From contig CP089278.1 in assembly GCA_023920165.1 (NCBI GenBank), forward strand, positions 558,001 through 622,000: a stretch of DNA of 64,000 nucleotides, in the 5' to 3' direction. This stretch comes from Curvularia clavata (lineage: Eukaryota). Of this stretch, positions 1,068 to 30,196 are shown piece by piece. Under the pieces are notes generated by a model, which had not been told where the DNA came from, searched no databases, and saw only the letters and a program-made list of their open reading frames with translations. The position numbers were made by a program, and so were the translations under genes. Each line of letters begins with the position of its first letter. The stretch's first letter is position 1.

Positions 1068-2624
1068 ATGGCGTCAGAAACACCAAACCGCCCATCCAAA
1101 CGCATTGCCATCTTCTGCGATGGAACATGGGTAGGTCGCGAAACCGCCGTCGAAGATGCACCGCCCAGCAACATTCGCCAACTGGCCAACATGGTCGGCG
1201 AAGTGCAATATGACGAGACGAACAAGACAGCCGCCAAAGTTCACCGGATTGAGCCGCATAGAAAATTCTCAAAGGCCGGCAACGACGATGATTCCATCAT
1301 CGCCGGCTACCAGGAAGGTGTGGGCCTAAACAAGAACTTTATGCAGTACATCTGGGACGGCGCAACGGCATCGTCCATTAGCGAAGAATGCATCGCCGTA
1401 TACAGGTTCATTGTCGAAAACTACACTGACGACCATGAAATCTGGCTGTTTGGATTCAGTCGCGGTGCTTTTACTGTACGCTGTGTGGCAGGGATGATCA
1501 ACAACTGCGGCATCATCAAGCGGCGGGACGACTACACTGACGCCGAAGTCTCGCGCCTGTGCTACGAAATCTTTCGCACGTACCGATCCAGTCTGCCTAT
1601 TGATGCACCGAAGAGCGAGGAGTGCAAGCGCTGGAAGGGCCTCGAGGACCGTGTCTGGCAGGTCAAGCGCCCAATCCGCTTCATGGGCATCATCGATACG
1701 GTCGGGGCACTGGGAATTCCTCGATTGAGCGCAGGTGTTGGATTCGATTGGAGTCCGTTTGAGTTTTTCGACCAGAGCATCTCGAGTGTGGTGCAGTACT
1801 GCTATCACGCGCCGTGCCTGCACGATCGACTGTGGACATTCCAGCCCTGTCTTGTTACTTCGACCGAGGAATTCGAGGACACAAACGAGCCAAAAGCCAA
1901 CATAACGCAAAGATGGTTCCCGGGAACTCATTACGACGTGGGCCGCATGACATTCCGCTTTTTGCGTCAGAGCCCTACAAACTGGATCGAGGAGGCGCTG
2001 GGCTGGCTTCCAGACCTGTTTTCCCGCACAATCTATCCCAACCAAGTGCTGAGCGATGCGGTACTGCGGTGGATGGTGGAAAGCGTGCATGCCGTTGATG
2101 AGAATTCTGAAAATCCCATTATGCCCGGCGCACAACAGTGGATCGAGCATCTTAATGAGAGGCTCGGTGAAGCCGCCCTGTCAAGCTCATCGAAGCGTGA
2201 CCAGCATTTGCGAATCGGCAGTGGCGATATCTATGGCGATGTGTTGGCTTATGCGCCTGGAGGCGTCGTGATTAGCTCATTACAAAAGACTTCACACACG
2301 ATTACCTCTTTTCTCAATGGTGTCGCCCCGCGCCTGGGCGACATGATTCAGAGCGTGCTGGGTGTAAAGACGCTCATCGGTATCCTGACAAACACAGCTG
2401 ATCGCCGCATTCCGGGTACGCAGGCAGACATCTACCCATACACGGAGCCAGAGACGGTAACACTCAAGGGAAATGAAGTTACTTTCAGGGTGCAAGATGT
2501 GGCGCAGATGAAGGCTGTAAATGAAAACAAGCAGGTCAGGTATCCGAGCCAGAGTTTCGAGTCATTTTTACTCTGGAAGGAGGTTTTTGGGAAGAAGGAG
2601 CACAAGTGTGACGCCCGAGACTAG
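1068..2624 (+). CDS. DUF2235 (Tle1-like) alpha/beta-hydrolase family protein, 518 aa, intronless
   Basis: Family motifs IAIFCDGTW, YQEGVG, WLFGFSRGAFTVR (GxSxG), IDTVGALG and WFPGTHYDVG. Confidence 0.88.
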   Translation: MASETPNRPSKRIAIFCDGTWVGRETAVEDAPPSNIRQLANMVGEVQYDETNKTAAKVHRIEPHRKFSKAGNDDDSIIAGYQEGVGLNKNFMQYIWDGATASSISEECIAVYRFIVENYTDDHEIWLFGFSRGAFTVRCVAGMINNCGIIKRRDDYTDAEVSRLCYEIFRTYRSSLPIDAPKSEECKRWKGLEDRVWQVKRPIRFMGIIDTVGALGIPRLSAGVGFDWSPFEFFDQSISSVVQYCYHAPCLHDRLWTFQPCLVTSTEEFEDTNEPKANITQRWFPGTHYDVGRMTFRFLRQSPTNWIEEALGWLPDLFSRTIYPNQVLSDAVLRWMVESVHAVDENSENPIMPGAQQWIEHLNERLGEAALSSSSKRDQHLRIGSGDIYGDVLAYAPGGVVISSLQKTSHTITSFLNGVAPRLGDMIQSVLGVKTLIGILTNTADRRIPGTQADIYPYTEPETVTLKGNEVTFRVQDVAQMKAVNENKQVRYPSQSFESFLLWKEVFGKKEHKCDARD

Positions 2625-2921
2625 TTTCTGATTATTAGATTGCGGCGGAATCTTCATTTGAGCGAATTCTTTAATATGTTGTCGTATAGCTCAATCTTGA
2701 TTTAGACAGCTAGATAGATCAGTCTTTCTTGTTCATTTCAAATGCACCCTCGTTCGCAAAGGCTTTCTTGTCGATGATTTGATCCCTGAGAAAGGTGTAT
2801 TAGATTTGTTACGCTCGCAGTAAAGATTCTTTATCTACTTGTAAAGTCTAGTGTATCGAAACGAAGAGAATATCTATATCTTTTCCAACGGCTGGCGTGT
2901 TATACAGAAGTAGCAAGACAC

Positions 2922-4273
2922 TTACTTCTTGCCTCTCCCACCAAAGCCCCAGCGAATCTGGTTGGCCCACCTAACCTCTACGCCAAGGTCGTCGGCGCAC
3001 TGCCAGACAAAGCCAGGATTCTTCTGGAACATGCGACCGATGAATGCGACGTCGAGGTTGTCGTTCTCAAGGTAGCCATTCGCCTGCTTGCCATCGGTAA
3101 TGCTACCAACGGTTCCGACAGCCATCTTGTTGCCGACCTTGTCCTTGACGGCCTTGGCAAATGGCTCTTGGTATCCGGGTCCGCCGTGGATATGTTGCTT
3201 CTCGTGGAGTCCACCAGATGAAACGTCGAGTAGATCGACACCCTTATCGGCTAGGATCTCTGCAAGGCGAACAGTCTGGTCAACAGTCCAACCTTCAATA
3301 CCAGCCTCATCGAGCCAGTCGGTCGCGCTGATGCGGAGGACAAGCGGCATGCTATCTGGAATAGCCTTGCGAGTAAGCTCGACTACTTCGAGGGTGAGAC
3401 GCGTGCGGTTCTCAAACGAGCCACCGTATTCGTCGGTACGCTTGTTGGATGCGGGAGAGAGGAAAGAATGTAGGAGGTAGCCGTGGGCGTTGTGAATCTC
3501 AATGGTATCAAAGCCAATCTTGACAGCACGCTTGACGGCGTCAACGAAAGCCTGCTTGAATGCCTCGATATCTTGCTTGGTCATCTCCTTGGGTGTGCAG
3601 TGCTTGTCGTTGAACGCAATGGCCGACGGGGCATAGACGTTATCTGGCCAGCCATTCATTTCCTTGGTAGCAATGTCACCCTTGCTTAGCCACGGTGCCA
3701 CGGTGCTGGCCTTGCGTCCAGCGTGAGCAAGTTGGATACCGATTTTCTGGCCCTGCGAGTGCGCAAATTCGACAATCTTTCGAAGGGGTTCCATTTGCGA
3801 ATCTTTCCATAGACCACAGTCCTCGGGAGTGATGCGGCCCTCTGGGACAACAGCAGTAGCCTCGACAAAGGTCAGGCCAGGGCCACGCTGGATAATGCCG
3901 CCCAAGTGTGTCAGATGCCAATTGGTCTGGTGGCCATCTTCGGCTGAGTACTGGCAGAGAGGAGAAAGCGCGAGGCGGTTTTGAATCTCAAGTCCGCGAA
4001 GCTTGAGGGGCTGGAAGAGCTTGGGAATCTTGGAGCTGCCATCGAGCATGCCCAAAGCGGTGCCTGCGGGAGGGTCTTGCTCCGGTGTGAAGTATGAGAC
4101 CTAGACGGGTTAGCCATTGCGAAGATGGTATGGAGACTGTTGCCTACACCAGGGGCAGCCTTGTTTCTCAGCTCATCCTGGACAGGAATTTGGCTGCTGT
4201 TCTTGTCTTCAGGAATGTCTTTTGCGATGGCGTGATGCGAGTGTGGCTTCGCGGTTTCAGCTTCAGCGCCCAT
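2922..4273 (-). CDS. NADH:flavin oxidoreductase / Old Yellow Enzyme (YqjM/NamA-like); 2 exons (4273-4148, 4100-2922)
   Basis: Motifs SPLCQYS, QLAHAGRKAS, IEIHNAHGYLLHSFLSP and RTDEYGGSFENR. Intron 4147-4101 (GTAGGC...GCTAAC...TAG) joins MGAEAE...AAPG to VSYFTPEQ in frame. Confidence 0.92.
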
Positions 4274-13470: not shown

Positions 13471-14520
13471 ATGCGTTACTCTTCCGCTCTGGTGTTGAGC
13501 ACCATCGTTGTCGGCCAGGCTGCTGCCGCCAACCTCCACAACCGCCACGCCAGCTTCCACGCTCGTCGCCAAGCGTGAGTTCTGCCAGACATGCTTCTGT
13601 CGAACCAAATCTAACCATGCAATAGCGAGGCCAAGCGCAGCGCTGACGGCCAGGTCGACTGGAGCAAGGTCGCATACGACCTCAGCGATGTCGACTGGGA
13701 CAAGGTTTTTGCTAAGCCTTCTCCTAGCCCAACTCCTGAGCCAGAGGCCAAGGTTGCTGAGGTTAAGCAAGCCGACACTTACCCCCAGGCCTCCAGCTCG
13801 TCGCCTGCCGCCACCTCGGCTCAGAGCAAGGCTCCTGCCGCCACCCCAACCAAGGACCCTCTTGGCGACCTCCTCGACGATGTTGGTGACATTGTCGAAA
13901 ACGCCCTCAACGGCCTCCAGTCCATGATCACTGGCCTTGGTGCCAAGATCGGAAAGAACCCCAAGACCAACGAGAATGGTATCTGGATTGGCAAGGACAG
14001 CAACTGGAGGGCCCAGTTCACCAACGACGCCAGCAAGGACGCTGTTCTCTTCTGCTGGAGGTCCAACGACTTCAAGAACATGTGCATCAACGAGATGCAG
14101 CCTGAGATCTCCGTCGGTCTCAAGTCCGGCCAGTCTGTCGACATCTCTTTCGAGGAGAACGCTTCTGCAGCCTGCGCTCCCGTCTACCCTGACACCAAGC
14201 TCGCCATGTTCGGTGGTGTCGACAACACCTGGTTCGAGGTCACCTTCGGATCATCGGGTGCTTTCGATGTTTCCCGCAACGTCAACATGAACGGCAACAA
14301 TATCTCCGCCAAGGGCTCCAAGTGCACATCCGACATGGACACCTGTGTCTTCAAGTGCAAGAACGGTATGACCACCTGCGAGAAGGGTACCGACTACGAC
14401 CTCTTCAACTGCGATTCCAGCAACGGTGGTGGCGGTGGCTACGACACAATCATGGCTGGTACCGGCGGTGGTTGCGCCATGGGCCAGAGCGGCGAGGTCA
14501 TCAAGGTTGTCATGTCCTAA
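13471..14520 (+). CDS. Secreted Cys-rich protein, Asp f 4-like; 2 exons (13471-13574, 13626-14520)
   Basis: Signal peptide MRYSSALVLSTIVVGQAAA, His-rich propeptide ending in KR, intron 13575-13625 (GTGAGT...CTAAC...TAG), Ser/Thr/Pro/Ala linker, C-terminal domain with 9 Cys, strong C-ending codon bias. The family assignment is by resemblance only. Confidence 0.75.
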
Positions 14521-25390: not shown

Positions 25391-25608
25391 CGCAGCATTG
25401 TAGCGCTCTCTACGCGGAAATGGTGGTGTTGTGATGAGGTGGAGAGTGCTGGTGGAGGGTGAAGGCGCCCCGCGTGTGATTGGCCGGGCGGTGTGTATAC
25501 CGTACTTGGCATTACCGCGGTCGCATTGTCGCGATTTCTTTTGACCGTCTCTCTGCCCCCAGCTCTCCACATCACGACTTTACCAATCAACACCACCCGG
25601 TACACATT

Positions 25609-26590
25609 ATGGCTGCGGCAGAGACGCGTAGGCTGCTCGGTATGCTCCTCCAAATCTACTCAATAGAAGAAAAAAACAAGACTGACACGATGCAGAGCAG
25701 CTCATGGGCGAACAGCTCATGAACGGAACCGACCAGCGCGCGCCCCAGCTCAGCATCACCGACCCCAAGGTCTGTCGCTCGTATCTTGTTGGCAACTGCC
25801 CACACGACCTCTTCACCAACACCAAGAACGAACTGGGAACCTGTCCCAAAGTCCACAATGAGGCGCTTAAGGCCGAGTACGAGAAGGCCGACGCAGAGCA
25901 GAAGCGCAGGTGGGGCTTCGAGTTTGACTACATGCGCGACATGCAGCATCACATTGACGCCTGTAACCGCAAAATAGATTCGGCCCAGCGCCGCCTAGAA
26001 AAGACGCCTGAGGAGATTCGGCAGACCAACGCTCTTGTAAGTAGCCTTGTGGTTGTTCCAACCTGTATCCTTTGCTAACATGTGAACAGCTCAAAGCAAT
26101 CAACGAACTCACAAAGTCCATCGAGGCCGGTATGCTCGAGATAAAGATCATGGGCGAGGAGGGCATGGTCAACATGGCCGTGCAAGAGTTCACAAAGGTC
26201 CGCTACAAGAAGGCAGAGAAGGAGGAGCGTGAGCGGGAACTGAGGGCCCTCTCGGACACTGGAGGTCCTTCGGGTCACCAGAAACTCCAAGTGTGTGACG
26301 TATGCGGTGCGTATCTCAGTCGTCTGGACAATGATCGTCGTCTAGCAGACCACTTTTACGGAAAGATGCATCTTGGCTACGCTTCGATGCGCAAGTCGTA
26401 TGAGGCACTGTCCAAGGAGCTCAAGGACCGTCCTCAACCCCGCAACTCGTACCCTTCTTCGAGCAACGACATGGATCGCGGCAGTGGCGGAGGATGGGGA
26501 GGCGGTGGTTACGGAGGCGGTGGTGGTGGCGGCGGTGGCTACCGTGGCGGACGAGGCGGTCGTCGCGGTGGCAGAAGAGGCGGCTGGTAA
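25609..26590 (+). CDS. LUC7: U1 snRNP component Luc7; 3 exons (25609-25639, 25696-26036, 26090-26590)
   Basis: Zinc fingers VCRSYLVGNCPHDLFTNTK...CPKVH and VCDVCGAYLS...DHFYGKMH, plus an RGG tail. Introns 25640-25695 and 26037-26089 restore frame. Confidence 0.96.
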
Positions 26591-26949
26591 AGTTTCCCCC
26601 TTAAGGTCTCGGCGTTCAGGTGTGTCTATGAGATTCCCAAAATGTGCAGCTTACTACAGTTTTGATGCGAGAGAAAATAACTACCACCACCTCGACTTGT
26701 TCGGTGGTGAAACTGTATAACATCTAGCCAACTATGTTGGGGGGAAGCCCTCCGAGAGGGTGAGTGTTTTGAGCTATGAAATCAAAGTTCCAAGTCAGCA
26801 AATGTACGCTTTTCTCTCCAAAAAAAAAAAAGATGCGCCCTGATATGCTTCTTTCTAACCGTCATTCAAGGGAACTGGACGCAGAAAACTACAACATGCC
26901 CTCTTGTTTGTGTGCATTCTTGTTGCAGGTGCGTGGCTTCTTCTTTCTT

Positions 26950-27470
26950 GGACCCGTGATACCTGTCTTTCTCTCGACGTGATGCAACCTGCTTGCTTCG
27001 TTTGTTTGTCACTACCATTCTCCCCATGGACACGTGCCCGTCGACGTCGTTTGCTTAGCAAAACGGGGGCACGTCATGTCCTGGCCTTGATCCCATGCAG
27101 CCATCAAGTCTTGAACAGCTTGGAGATTCACTCGGCTAGACTGGCACTGGCATATCTTCTCCAGTTTATATATCAAGAAAACGCTCATCTTTCTATCAAG
27201 CGTCACTCGTCTTGCCTCACTGGGTGGGTCCCCTAGCAATAATAGTACCGTAGTGGTTTAGCACTACGACTAGTACTGGGTTGCTCGCTAGGGGAGCATC
27301 TGTCGGCTGTAGGACCAGAGTTCGATTCGGACCAAACCCAATATCCGAGTTGAATGAGAGTCTGATCCGGAAGACAGGTGTCGGGCAACGGAGGCTCTGG
27401 CGAGTCGACGGCTTGAGAGAAATCAGCGGTTTGATTGAAATATCGATTGTAACCTTGATTTTTTTGCCCT
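26950..27470 (+). ncRNA. Candidate structured non-coding RNA or large cis-regulatory RNA element, family unassigned
   Basis: Dense set of hand-found helices with + strand G-U pairs, long-range pairings and a 3' AUUUUUUUG Sm-like site (see findings). No credible ORF. Confidence 0.45.
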
Positions 27471-27754
27471 TCCTTTTTTTGCCCGTAGTGAAAGCGGTAG
27501 TATAGTAGATATAGTAGATGATCAGCAACTACGTAGTATTCAGCAGTGCTGTTAAAAGTTAGACTCGATTATCGTACTTAAGATAATAAGAATCTCTCCC
27601 GTCATTATGTGGCTCGATAAATACTCCAAGTTGGAAAAGGTACATAGAGTATCTTGACCTATCTTCAGCAGCAAAAACAGTAACATCACAAACCACCCAA
27701 ACGAGACATTCTAATATAACAACAACACATGGGTATTCATTTCCAACTCTACAC

Positions 27755-30196
27755 TTATTCCTCCTCGTCATCAAACCCCAGTCCGTCCACTTGTCCCAAA
27801 AACTCCGTGTTCCCCCTCCCCTCCATCAACGCCTCGACATCAATACCCCCACTAGTCAGATACCTCGCACTAACTCCTGTATTAATCCTCTGCGCCAATA
27901 GACCCTTCAACTCTGCCCTCAACGCCTGCACCTCCGCCTTGGTCATCTGGCTTGCCTCCCTCTCCTTCTTCTTACGGCCACTACCCCGACCGCGTTTACC
28001 CTTGGACTCCTTCTCCAGCTCCTCACTGTCGTAATCAACGCCCAGATCCTCAGCGGCCTGGCGCAAGACATCGTCACCGCTATTCTTCTTTTCCTTGGCG
28101 ATAACGGTATCAGCGAGGCGCTTGGAGATGGTAGCGCGGGGCTTAAGGCGTGAGACGATGCGGCGGTCAATGTCGAGGGTGCGAATGAAGAAGGACGTGT
28201 TTTTCGCCTTTGGCGCTGAGGCAGCGCGAGCGTGTACTTTGGCGATGAGGCGACGCACACCTGCGACTTCTTCGGGAGCGCAGATTAGGATGCTGGCACC
28301 GGAGGCAGAGGCGCGTGCTGTGCGTCCAGAGCGGTGCACGTACGTGTCTGCGGTTCGAGGCAGGTGGTAGTGGATGACGAGTTCTACTTTGGGGATGTCG
28401 AGACCGCGGGCGGCGACGTCGGTGGCAACGAGGATGGAGCCGGGGCGTTCTTTGAAGCGTTCGATGGAGCGGAGACGCGCCTTTTGCGCCATGTTGGAGT
28501 GGAGAGGCAGAGCCGGCAGGGCTAGGTTGGTAAGGAAGGGGGTTATGCGTCGGACTGCGGAGATGGAGTTTGTGAAGATGAGGGCGCGCTTTTGGGGGTA
28601 GAACATGAGAAGAGAGTATAGGTATAGGTCTTTTTCAGGACCGGCACATTCAATAAGTCCTTCCTGGAGTTTGCTGGCCATCTGTGAGGTCGGATTGGCG
28701 TCGATGAACTTGGGCTTCTCTTCGCGGAAGCGAAGTTTTTTCAGGAGATACTCCATCGATTGTTGCTGGTTCATCTGGTCACCACCAAACTTGGCCTTGC
28801 CAGCAAGCTTTCTCTGCAAGTCTTTGCCAAAGGTAGCAGAGAAGACGAGGGTTTGGCGCTCAAGTTCTGGTGTTTCTGTTGCCACGCCGTTCTCGTTTGG
28901 CTTGTCGTCAGGCTCGAGAACTTTGAGGATATCATCCATTTCCTTAAAGTGACCCTCGCTCAGCAGGCGGTCAGCTTCGTCGACGACCAGGAACTTGATC
29001 TGCTTGAACTTAGCAAGCAAGCCGTGGCCGCTGCTGATCACCTCCCACAGTCGTCCTGGGGTTCCGACAACTATATCTGCCTTTTCCAGTTGCCTACGCT
29101 GCTTTTGTACTGACAGACCACCGGTGATGGATGCAATATAGGGAGAGTCAAAGTCACCCTTCGTGCAAAGCGCAATCAGATGGCTGTTGATCTGGTGGGC
29201 AAGTTCTCGAGTTGGCGCAATGATGAGGGCGAGTGGAGTTTTGCTTTCGGCGTCCTTGGAAGCTGAACGAGAAGCAAGATACGACTCGATGATGGGAATT
29301 CCGAACGCAAGCGTCTTTCCTGAACCGGTTGAAGCCTTTCCAATAACATCTCTACCAGCAAGGATCTCGGGTATACTTGATGATTGAATGTCGGTGGGCT
29401 TGGAAAACTTGAGCTTCGCCAATGCTCCGAGCATTTCGTCAGATAGATCCAGATCCGCCCAAGCAGATACATCTTCTTCGTCGCTGTCGTCGACCGGCTG
29501 GTTTGCCAGTATGTCAAAGGCGCCAGGACCAAAAGTCTCGCCCTCCTCAACGCCATCTGCGTCGGGCTCGTCTTCATCTTTGTCTTCTGCGTCACCATTT
29601 GCCTTTTGCTCCTGCTCTCTTTTCAGTCTCTCTTCCTTGAGTCTCTTCTTCTTTTCCGTCTTCGTCTCTTTTCGTGTCTCGGGCTGGCTGTTCGCTACCG
29701 GCTTGGGCTCTTCTGTCTCGGCCTCTTCATCGCTAAAGCCCTCCCATTCTGGCTCTTCGCCGTCCCCCTGTGCCTCGACTTCTACCATATCCTCCTCTTC
29801 CTCCTCTTCCCTTTCGTCAGCTTCACTCTCATCCTCTTCCCCGGGCTCCTGGCCCTCGCCAAAAGTTATCTTCTCCAGACGTCGGGCCTCTTCCTCCTCG
29901 CGCTGTCGGGCTTCCTCCACATCGCGTGCAACCTCGTCTTCCGTCTTTGTTGTTTCAAAATGCAGGTTCCCGGTAACAGGGTCCTTGATAATTTCCACGT
30001 CATCAATCTCCTCGAGTCCGTAAAAGCCCTCTGTATCCTCCAAGCGATCGGGCATGGAAACAGTCTTCCAACCTAGCTGGTCAAGCTGCACTCTACGTTT
30101 GGTCTTCGCAGGCAGGGGTTTAGGAAAGTCGTCGACCTTTTGGCGCTTATGCGCCTTGTGCGCTGCCTTTTTTGGGGCGGCATGAGGGCGCTTCAT
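27755..30196 (-). CDS. MAK5: ATP-dependent DEAD-box RNA helicase Mak5/DDX24, 813 aa, intronless
   Basis: ASTGSGKT, PTRELA, TPGRLW, DEAD, SAT, ARGLDIP and HRSGRTAR motifs. The N-terminal FYGLEEID and acidic region are typical of Mak5. Confidence 0.93.
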   Translation of the reverse strand: MKRPHAAPKKAAHKAHKRQKVDDFPKPLPAKTKRRVQLDQLGWKTVSMPDRLEDTEGFYGLEEIDDVEIIKDPVTGNLHFETTKTEDEVARDVEEARQREEEEARRLEKITFGEGQEPGEEDESEADEREEEEEEDMVEVEAQGDGEEPEWEGFSDEEAETEEPKPVANSQPETRKETKTEKKKRLKEERLKREQEQKANGDAEDKDEDEPDADGVEEGETFGPGAFDILANQPVDDSDEEDVSAWADLDLSDEMLGALAKLKFSKPTDIQSSSIPEILAGRDVIGKASTGSGKTLAFGIPIIESYLASRSASKDAESKTPLALIIAPTRELAHQINSHLIALCTKGDFDSPYIASITGGLSVQKQRRQLEKADIVVGTPGRLWEVISSGHGLLAKFKQIKFLVVDEADRLLSEGHFKEMDDILKVLEPDDKPNENGVATETPELERQTLVFSATFGKDLQRKLAGKAKFGGDQMNQQQSMEYLLKKLRFREEKPKFIDANPTSQMASKLQEGLIECAGPEKDLYLYSLLMFYPQKRALIFTNSISAVRRITPFLTNLALPALPLHSNMAQKARLRSIERFKERPGSILVATDVAARGLDIPKVELVIHYHLPRTADTYVHRSGRTARASASGASILICAPEEVAGVRRLIAKVHARAASAPKAKNTSFFIRTLDIDRRIVSRLKPRATISKRLADTVIAKEKKNSGDDVLRQAAEDLGVDYDSEELEKESKGKRGRGSGRKKKEREASQMTKAEVQALRAELKGLLAQRINTGVSARYLTSGGIDVEALMEGRGNTEFLGQVDGLGFDDEEE

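Follow-up and report, generated by a model that had tools for sequence, protein, structure and literature searches.

The window analysed here is a 64-kb stretch of Curvularia clavata DNA, the sequence of which reads like that of a filamentous fungus, and all coordinates given below are window positions. On the + strand, a LUC7-like open reading frame (ORF) ends at 26590 and is followed by a gap of 1164 nt and a convergent, MAK5-like ORF, and the middle of this gap, 26950-27470, is the interval of interest. A preliminary description had proposed that the interval represents a novel, densely structured + strand RNA of ~520 nt, ending in an Sm-like site in the manner of the U1 small nuclear RNA (snRNA) and the telomerase RNA of budding yeast, or else a structured 3' extension of the LUC7 transcript. 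As the claim of a new Sm-class RNA fails, the finding becomes far more ordinary: we tentatively favor that 26950-27470 is the distal part of the LUC7 3' untranslated region (3'UTR), carrying a lineage-specific, multi-copy structured module as a passenger.

To describe the extent and strand of the fold, folding energies were compared with those of shuffled sequences. Taken as a whole, the interval reaches -182.6 kcal/mol on the + strand (z -3.68, with 0 of 100 shuffles as stable) and displays a z of -2.01 on the - strand, and a single one of 20 background window-strands of 521 nt was more extreme. The latter, 13500-14020, scores -4.45 on the - strand (25 shuffles) and -2.60 on the + strand. While the complete interval hence shows a moderate excess of stability, the entire signal resides in 27205-27470 and none of it in 26950-27204: the former folds to -106.2 kcal/mol on the + strand with a z of -4.88 and 0 of 200 shuffles as stable, and the latter has a z of +0.21, with 114 of 200 shuffles folding as well or better. 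Excess structure is also lacking in 26591-26803, 26871-27177 and 27464-27754 (+ strand z -0.10 to +0.67). The fold at 27205-27470 is real and + strand-specific, but with ~265 nt it is half the proposed size, and the 255 nt on its 5' side, counted as part of the RNA in the preliminary description, do not contribute.

On the - strand, 27205-27470 folds to -79.0 kcal/mol (z -2.60), and the asymmetry recurs for 27211-27470 (z -6.65 on the + strand, 0 of 60 shuffles as stable, and -2.87 on the - strand) and for 27296-27463 (-4.10 versus -0.64, also 60 shuffles). As a local background we employed 72 windows of 260 nt, placed in 700-nt steps from 300 to 50700 and excluding those touching 26900-27500; the resulting 144 window-strands have a mean z of 0.10, a standard deviation of 1.00 and a minimum of -2.82, so that none reached -3. 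The between-strand difference in z of the fold, -2.3 to -3.8, lies beyond that of all 72 background pairs (-1.91 to +2.48), congruent with the earlier proposal of a + strand RNA.

The same figures bear on the possibility of a cluster of palindromes at the DNA level, arisen by chance or as decayed inverted repeats and without any life as RNA. Raw hairpin energy is indeed unexceptional, as 24 + strand clusters of 70-nt windows with a minimum free energy (MFE) of -30 kcal/mol or lower are present in the 64 kb. Moreover, two of the hairpins are equally stable on both strands, namely 27032-27074 (-26.6 and -26.9 kcal/mol) and hairpin A (Table 1; -31.1 on the + strand and -30.9 on the - strand; 70-nt windows in both cases). 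Such a cluster is nevertheless very unlikely considering the z values of -4.9 to -6.7 on the + strand against -2.6 to -2.9 on the other, the behavior of 27296-27463, the strand difference exceeding every background pair, and the G-U content of the fold, with 17 of 93 pairs being of this kind.

The preliminary description had tiled the interval with helices, and a script check recovered every one of the listed words in its place. Six re-derived helices comprise 8, 6, 10, 9, 11 and 9 pairs without mismatch, of which 0, 0, 4, 0, 2 and 2, respectively, are G-U. Only three of them find support in the thermodynamic ensemble of 26950-27470, all being local hairpins, with mean pair probabilities of 0.94 for 27032-39/27067-74, 0.88 for 27229-37/27287-95 and 0.98 for 27321-31/27344-54. 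The remaining three are not: 27086-91/27103-08 reaches 0.04, and the long-range helix 27300-08/27403-11 yields 0.00 and is furthermore interrupted at two positions in a near-identical X1 RNA contig (27306 G>T and 27308 T>C). The third, 27126-35/27220-29, had been assigned as the closing stem of a three-way junction; with a pair probability of 0.02 this junction is abandoned, and the fold has a different architecture. The 3' half of the interval is predicted to form three long hairpins on the + strand, with A and B enclosed by a common stem and C located 3' of this domain.

The word ATTTTTTTG at 27458-66, behind the folded domains, had been taken for an Sm-like site, and jointly with the strand specificity of the fold it is what speaks for a novel ~520-nt Sm-class RNA, U1-like or telomerase-RNA-like, ending at this point. 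An Sm site is expected as a single-stranded A, four to six U, G and a purine, positioned between stems and conserved, whereas ATTTTTTTG reads A-U7-G-C. In the MFE as well as the centroid structure, its U-run is predicted to pair with the A-rich AGAGAAAUCAG at 27416-26 as part of hairpin C. It is also located within a 15-nt tandem repeat of variable copy number, two in the window and three in a near-identical contig (X12 record 18), and the assignment as an Sm site is consequently not supported. The T7 runs at 27459 and 27474, directly behind the fold, are the two copies of this repeat; runs of this type are uncommon, with 28 matches at ~17 distinct places on both strands of the 64 kb. Right behind the fold, 27490-27545 further contains two copies of a 9-nt tandem repeat (TATAGTAGA), along with several GTAGTA words.

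For the window as a whole, Rfam returned nothing at gathering scores. At E values up to 10, five chance-level matches appear over 26500-27800 (E 1.6-8.4; 12.8-19 bits versus cut-offs of 37-90) and two, again at chance level, when 27160-27500 is searched permissively; none of these permissive matches is to an snRNA, telomerase, signal recognition particle (SRP), RNase P/MRP or ribozyme family. The telomere template CCCTAACCC, allowing one mismatch, is matched six times in the window, but not between 24587 and 33325. The preliminary description, too, had noted no U1 5' end, telomere template, or RNase P/MRP, SRP or snR30 signature. An Sm-class or telomerase-like RNA is thus highly improbable, considering also the 5' 255 nt without excess structure, the paired and variable U-run, and, as detailed below, the missing conservation in relatives, the contiguity with a spliced mRNA and a contig depth similar to that of LUC7 pieces.

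Evidence at the RNA level derives from contigs of four of 24 matching runs, X1, X9, X10 and X12, with X1 being RNA and X12 recorded as a metatranscriptome, and the sequence differences considered are the best-supported ones listed. Contig 1 of X1 (1834 nt, depth 98) spans 25600-27577, covering the LUC7 exons through the 3'UTR, with three introns removed. Two of these are the coding introns 25639-25694 and 26037-26089, and the third is a GT..AG intron in the 3'UTR (joint 26803/26871), following which the contig runs unbroken to 27577. Because this contig joins both, 26950-27470 lies on the same continuous + strand RNA as the LUC7 mRNA, and the second proposal of the preliminary description, in which the LUC7 transcript has a structured 3' extension, is supported. 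The spliced LUC7 3'UTR is accordingly ~920 nt, which is unusually long, and ends near 27577. The + strand is fixed up to 26871 by the orientation of the intron, and beyond this position the continuity of the contig and the gap before the MAK5-side contig point to the same strand. Run X12 covers 27292-27498 without other letters besides one extra repeat copy, and most of 26812-27215 is uncovered in X9, X10 and X12, which weighs neither way. Contig depth, a poor measure of RNA level, is 3.3 (X12) and 4.7 (X9) over the fold, compared with 3.5-7.8 (X12) and 3.6 (X9) for LUC7 pieces.

The fold region is moreover represented by diverged, expressed copies. Two low-depth contigs of X1 match the window in this region only: record 3 (329 nt, depth 3.4) aligns to 27178-27463, from which it departs by 28 other letters and 15 gaps and by an extended TA run on the left, and record 4 is the second diverged contig, of depth 2.1 (versus 98 for contig 1). 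Since no diverged LUC7 or MAK5 contig is found among the five records of X1, we infer that records 3 and 4 are paralogues from elsewhere in the same organism rather than contaminants. For X9, no more than 4 letters in 620 separate the window from the LUC7 and MAK5 contigs, but the fold is covered by a single contig, record 22 (depth 4.7), in which 15 of the 132 aligned bases are other letters. In addition, 27313-27363 is replaced by 19 other letters in this record (joint 27312/27364), corresponding exactly to the distal sub-hairpin of hairpin B. Among the differences listed, X1 contig 1 departs from the window at four positions inside the fold, all of them compatible with the structure: those at 27308 and 27326 convert U-G to C-G, and those at 27306 and 27427 affect unpaired positions. 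With the letters of X1 contig 1 the fold energy changes from -106.2 to -110.1 kcal/mol, the structure being the same. Four changes are too few for a test, yet they point in the same direction as the strand preference. One may extend these observations to suggest that 27205-27470 is a copy of an undescribed, lineage-specific family of ~265-nt structured small RNAs, the several diverged, expressed copies of which keep the fold via compatible changes and helix-bounded indels, and that this particular copy may have been recruited to splice-site feedback of LUC7; we regard this as unlikely.

Several of these features would also fit an independent gene, that is a lineage-specific small non-coding RNA of ~265 nt with several diverged copies and its own promoter, terminating at the T7 runs in the manner of RNA polymerase III transcription and overlapped by LUC7 read-through. 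A TATATAT run at 27167-27173 is located ~31 nt upstream of the first stem, with a TA run at the equivalent place in X1 record 3. The fold is very stable and strand-specific, with its 5' and 3' parts paired, and is directly followed by two T7 runs, the diverged copies are recovered as separate expressed contigs, and the observed changes are structure-compatible. On the other hand, no Rfam family is matched, and the RNA contig passes both T-runs and proceeds ~100 nt further. The depth over the fold, with the reservation stated for this measure, is like that of the LUC7 pieces and not far higher, as a stable small RNA would lead one to expect, and matches to A and B boxes occur only at chance level. 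We consequently deem a gene of this type rather unlikely.

Returning to the distal LUC7 3'UTR with a passenger module, the 5' half of the interval would here be ordinary, fast-evolving UTR sequence. The module in the 3' half would most likely originate from a short dispersed repeat that landed behind LUC7, either SINE-like (short interspersed nuclear element), another non-autonomous element or a duplicated small-RNA gene. The fold would then go back to the existence of the module as an RNA in its own right rather than to any function in expressing LUC7, and it is in this sense that we infer both the repeat origin and the passenger role.

A number of observations weigh against this account. The contigs give neither strand nor RNA ends and can merge overlapping transcripts, and a separate transcript could start inside the interval. 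The diverged contigs could stem from a low-level second organism instead of from paralogues, and no second copy of the fold stretch is found in the 64-kb window. Furthermore, ARAGORN detects no tRNA and no tRNA-like head, and at a threshold of 60% it returns six poor candidates, five of which are on the - strand. An A-box-like word at 27246 (one mismatch) and a B-box-like word at 27319 (two mismatches) are present, with matches of these kinds at chance frequency (31 versus 28 expected and 156 versus 188 expected, respectively), and the flanks 27100-27240 and 27400-27560 share no direct repeat of 6 nt or more. Finally, the strand-specific fold and the structure-compatible changes would equally fit a functional RNA.

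As for the class of element, a miniature inverted-repeat transposable element (MITE) was considered and rejected: the longest long-range inverted repeat, 26958-69/27371-82, does not bound the shared stretch 27178-27463, and no flanking duplication was found. No MITE or long terminal repeat ends were found. The element may be either a short dispersed repeat or a member of a family of small-RNA genes.

Table 1. Features of the LUC7-MAK5 region, in window coordinates.
Feature	Position	Strand	Basis
LUC7 stop codon	26588-26590	+	Exon 3 translation; exon structure from spliced run X1 contig
Conserved proximal LUC7 3'UTR block, including invariant AGGTGTGT at 26618-26625	26605-26670	+	blastn, alignment A1
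67-nt 3'UTR intron	26804-26870	+	5' splice site GTACGC 26804-09, branch TTCTAAC 26853-59, AG 26869-70
Second 5' splice-site-like motif CAG/GTGCGT, last conserved 3'UTR element	26926-26934	+	Alignment A1
5' half of the interval: transcribed, not conserved, no excess structure but a palindromic hairpin at 27032-27074	26950-27204	+	z, pair probability
Stretch with diverged expressed copies	27178-27463	+	X1 records 3 and 4; X9 record 22
Two-hairpin domain, predicted closing stems 27205-11/27399-405 and 27214-18/27391-95	27205-27405	+	MFE, centroid
Hairpin A, 25 base pairs, inside the domain	27229-27295	+	Ensemble, MFE, helix list
Hairpin B, 28 base pairs of which 7 G-U, inside the domain	27296-27381	+	Helix list
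Hairpin C, 25 base pairs, 3' of the domain; 3' strand is the T-run	27410-27468	+	MFE, helix list
15-nt tandem repeat, two copies, each ending in T7 + GC	27453-27482	+	Repeat search
End of LUC7-side RNA contig (27577) and start of MAK5-side contig (27599)	27577-27599		X1 records 1 and 5
MAK5-like DEAD-box helicase ORF, 813 aa, convergent with LUC7	27755-30196	-	ORF list and translation

For comparison with other genomes, 80 related loci were assembled from metagenome contigs scanned with LUC7 exon 3 (68-97% identity over the 118-residue query), of which those with an exon-3 identity of at least 75.8% over the tblastn match constitute the closer clade, with 14 members among the 65 loci that have at least 300 nt of downstream sequence. 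Blastn of the gap against the 80 loci recovers relatives only for 26605-26670 and 26789-26871, and nothing similar to 26950-27470 is detected in any of them, be it by this search or, with E values of up to 10 admitted, by nhmmer, tblastx or a relaxed blastn. Thirteen closer-clade loci extend 1150-4859 nt past the LUC7 stop, representing 11 distinct sequences as L011/L012 and L013/L014 are near-identical pairs. None of these 13 loci, each with at least 1.1 kb downstream, displays similarity to 26950-27470. MAK5 follows LUC7 only in L013 and L014, there at an interval of ~2.5 kb, and it is not present within 1.4-4.9 kb in eight other close loci, so synteny breaks just behind LUC7. Between LUC7 and MAK5, L013 holds a pepsin-like aspartic protease gene with two D-S-G-S-S motifs (2444-3917; same sequence in L014). 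No such gene or remnant was detected in the window gap 26591-27754 (tblastx, E up to 10), and the idea that the interval is the remnant of a lost protease gene was rejected, the tblastx matches being at chance level only.

We also scanned the downstream sequence of eight relatives for folding, L017, L033 and L009 being left out. Strongly folding windows (z of -3.5 or lower) were encountered only in L010 and L013, at different places and without sequence similarity. Relative to the LUC7 stop, these are found at +521 to +780 in L010 (z -3.9 on the + strand and -3.2 on the - strand) and at +261 to +520 in L013 (-4.4 and -2.0).

Conservation in the LUC7 3'UTR is confined to a cassette, 26605-26934, and ends at 26934, just upstream of the interval. 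Its proximal block is matched by blastn in 11 of the 80 loci, and a twelfth locus, L003, matches only the intron block 26789-26871. Among the 65 loci reaching 300 nt or more beyond LUC7, AGGTGTGT occurs 20-28 nt past the stop in 14, which are all the members of the closer clade. The 3'UTR intron begins 213 nt past the LUC7 stop codon, and its signals GTACGC, TTCTAAC and CAAG/G are invariant in 11 of 11 aligned sequences (alignment A1). An intron-like order of GTACGC, branch and AG is present in all 14 closer-clade loci, whereas GTACGC is matched in 1 of 51 more distant loci, probably by chance. Regarding the second 5' splice-site-like motif, G at 26929 and T at 26934 are nearly invariant and G at 26933 is invariant in alignment A1. 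Twelve of the 14 closer-clade loci carry a consensus AGGTRNGT 50-78 nt past the intron, the distance in the window being about 60 nt, and the motif is unspliced in X1 contig 1. In fungal mRNAs, an intron more than 50 nt past the stop codon and a long tail behind it together mark the transcript for nonsense-mediated decay. For LUC7, the working parts are likely to be found upstream of the interval, namely in the conserved intron and 5' splice-site motifs, and judging from its sequence, the cassette suggests a splice-site-based feedback device for a protein of the U1 small nuclear ribonucleoprotein (snRNP).

It is then conceivable that the fold itself belongs to such a device, as a cis-regulatory structure of the LUC7 mRNA. 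CAG/GTGCGT at 26926-34 would be the 5' splice site at which a second, long 3'UTR intron begins, with its end at the TAG at 27486-88, and hairpin C would hide a branch-like TTGTAAC at 27447-53 and a pyrimidine tract, with retention versus splicing and decay being set by U1/Luc7 activity. A human precedent is provided by LUC7L and LUC7L2, which are auto- and cross-regulated via regulatory exons with premature stop codons in a 5' splice-site-dependent manner (PMC11842720). At the Curvularia locus, the wide retention of the 5' splice-site motif in the closer clade would agree with this proposal, as would the absence of AG from 27425-27487, the T-rich tract preceding the TAG and the predicted pairing of the branch-like motif and the tract in hairpin C. 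However, an intron of 560 nt is unusually long for this kind of fungus, and the joint 26929 to 27489 is seen in no run examined, X1 contig 1 retaining the stretch. Further counting against it, the fold is missing from all related loci, only two of the eight scanned relatives possess a strongly folding downstream window, in each case elsewhere, and no branch consensus is found near the 5' splice site. We therefore consider a cis-regulatory role of the fold distinctly unlikely.

Concerning reading frames across the region, a search of the protein collection with the stop-free - strand frame of 103 aa at 27220-27528 recovered no relatives (two candidates, neither scoring). The 84-aa + strand ORF at 26982-27236 crosses a TA repeat that is expanded in a diverged copy. 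In the intron-spliced arrangement, 26776-26803 joined to 26871-26954, the ATG at 26776 opens a cysteine-rich frame of ~37 codons over the splice junction, probably by chance.

Aggregated, a 265-nt strand-specific fold beyond the local background, with diverged expressed copies, is well suited to a genome-wide search for copies and to a test of covariation in this fungus. Upstream of it, the cassette, comprising a 5' splice-site-like word past the stop, a spliced 3'UTR intron and a second consensus 5' splice site, suggests that a fungal U1 snRNP protein may sense splicing via the tail of its own mRNA. In our literature search we found neither a description of such sensing for fungal LUC7 nor a paper describing a 3'UTR intron in this gene.

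The interval can be placed against four known systems. As in the U1 snRNA and telomerase RNA of budding yeast, a multi-helix domain is followed by a word of A, a U-run and G, but unlike these RNAs it matches no family or template, its U-run is paired and variable, and it sits in an mRNA tail and is not conserved. SINEs and other non-autonomous elements are short dispersed repeats of filamentous fungi. The module resembles them in being a few hundred bases long, non-coding and lineage-specific, with several diverged transcribed copies and a UTR or intergenic position, whereas in contrast to fungal SINEs it displays no tRNA-like head, has box motifs at chance level, and no target-site duplication was found.

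Zhang and Sachs, in Genetics in 2015, reportedly identified Neurospora crassa mRNAs with spliced 3'UTR introns as targets of nonsense-mediated decay. LUC7 is like this class in that the mRNA of an RNA-processing factor carries a conserved, spliced GT..AG intron 213 nt past the stop. It departs from it in that the structured module lies downstream of, and outside, the conserved cassette. In a study in Neurospora, luc7 mRNA rises 3.2-fold on exosome knock-down with unchanged stability (PMC4549623).

Lastly, compared with human LUC7L and LUC7L2, the fungal motifs reside in the 3'UTR and not in a cassette exon of the coding region, and are linked to the 265-nt fold by position only. Sensing of splicing via the LUC7 tail would nonetheless parallel the human regulatory exons, with both cases representing a U1-associated LUC7 gene equipped with conserved extra 5' splice sites at which splicing would lower expression.

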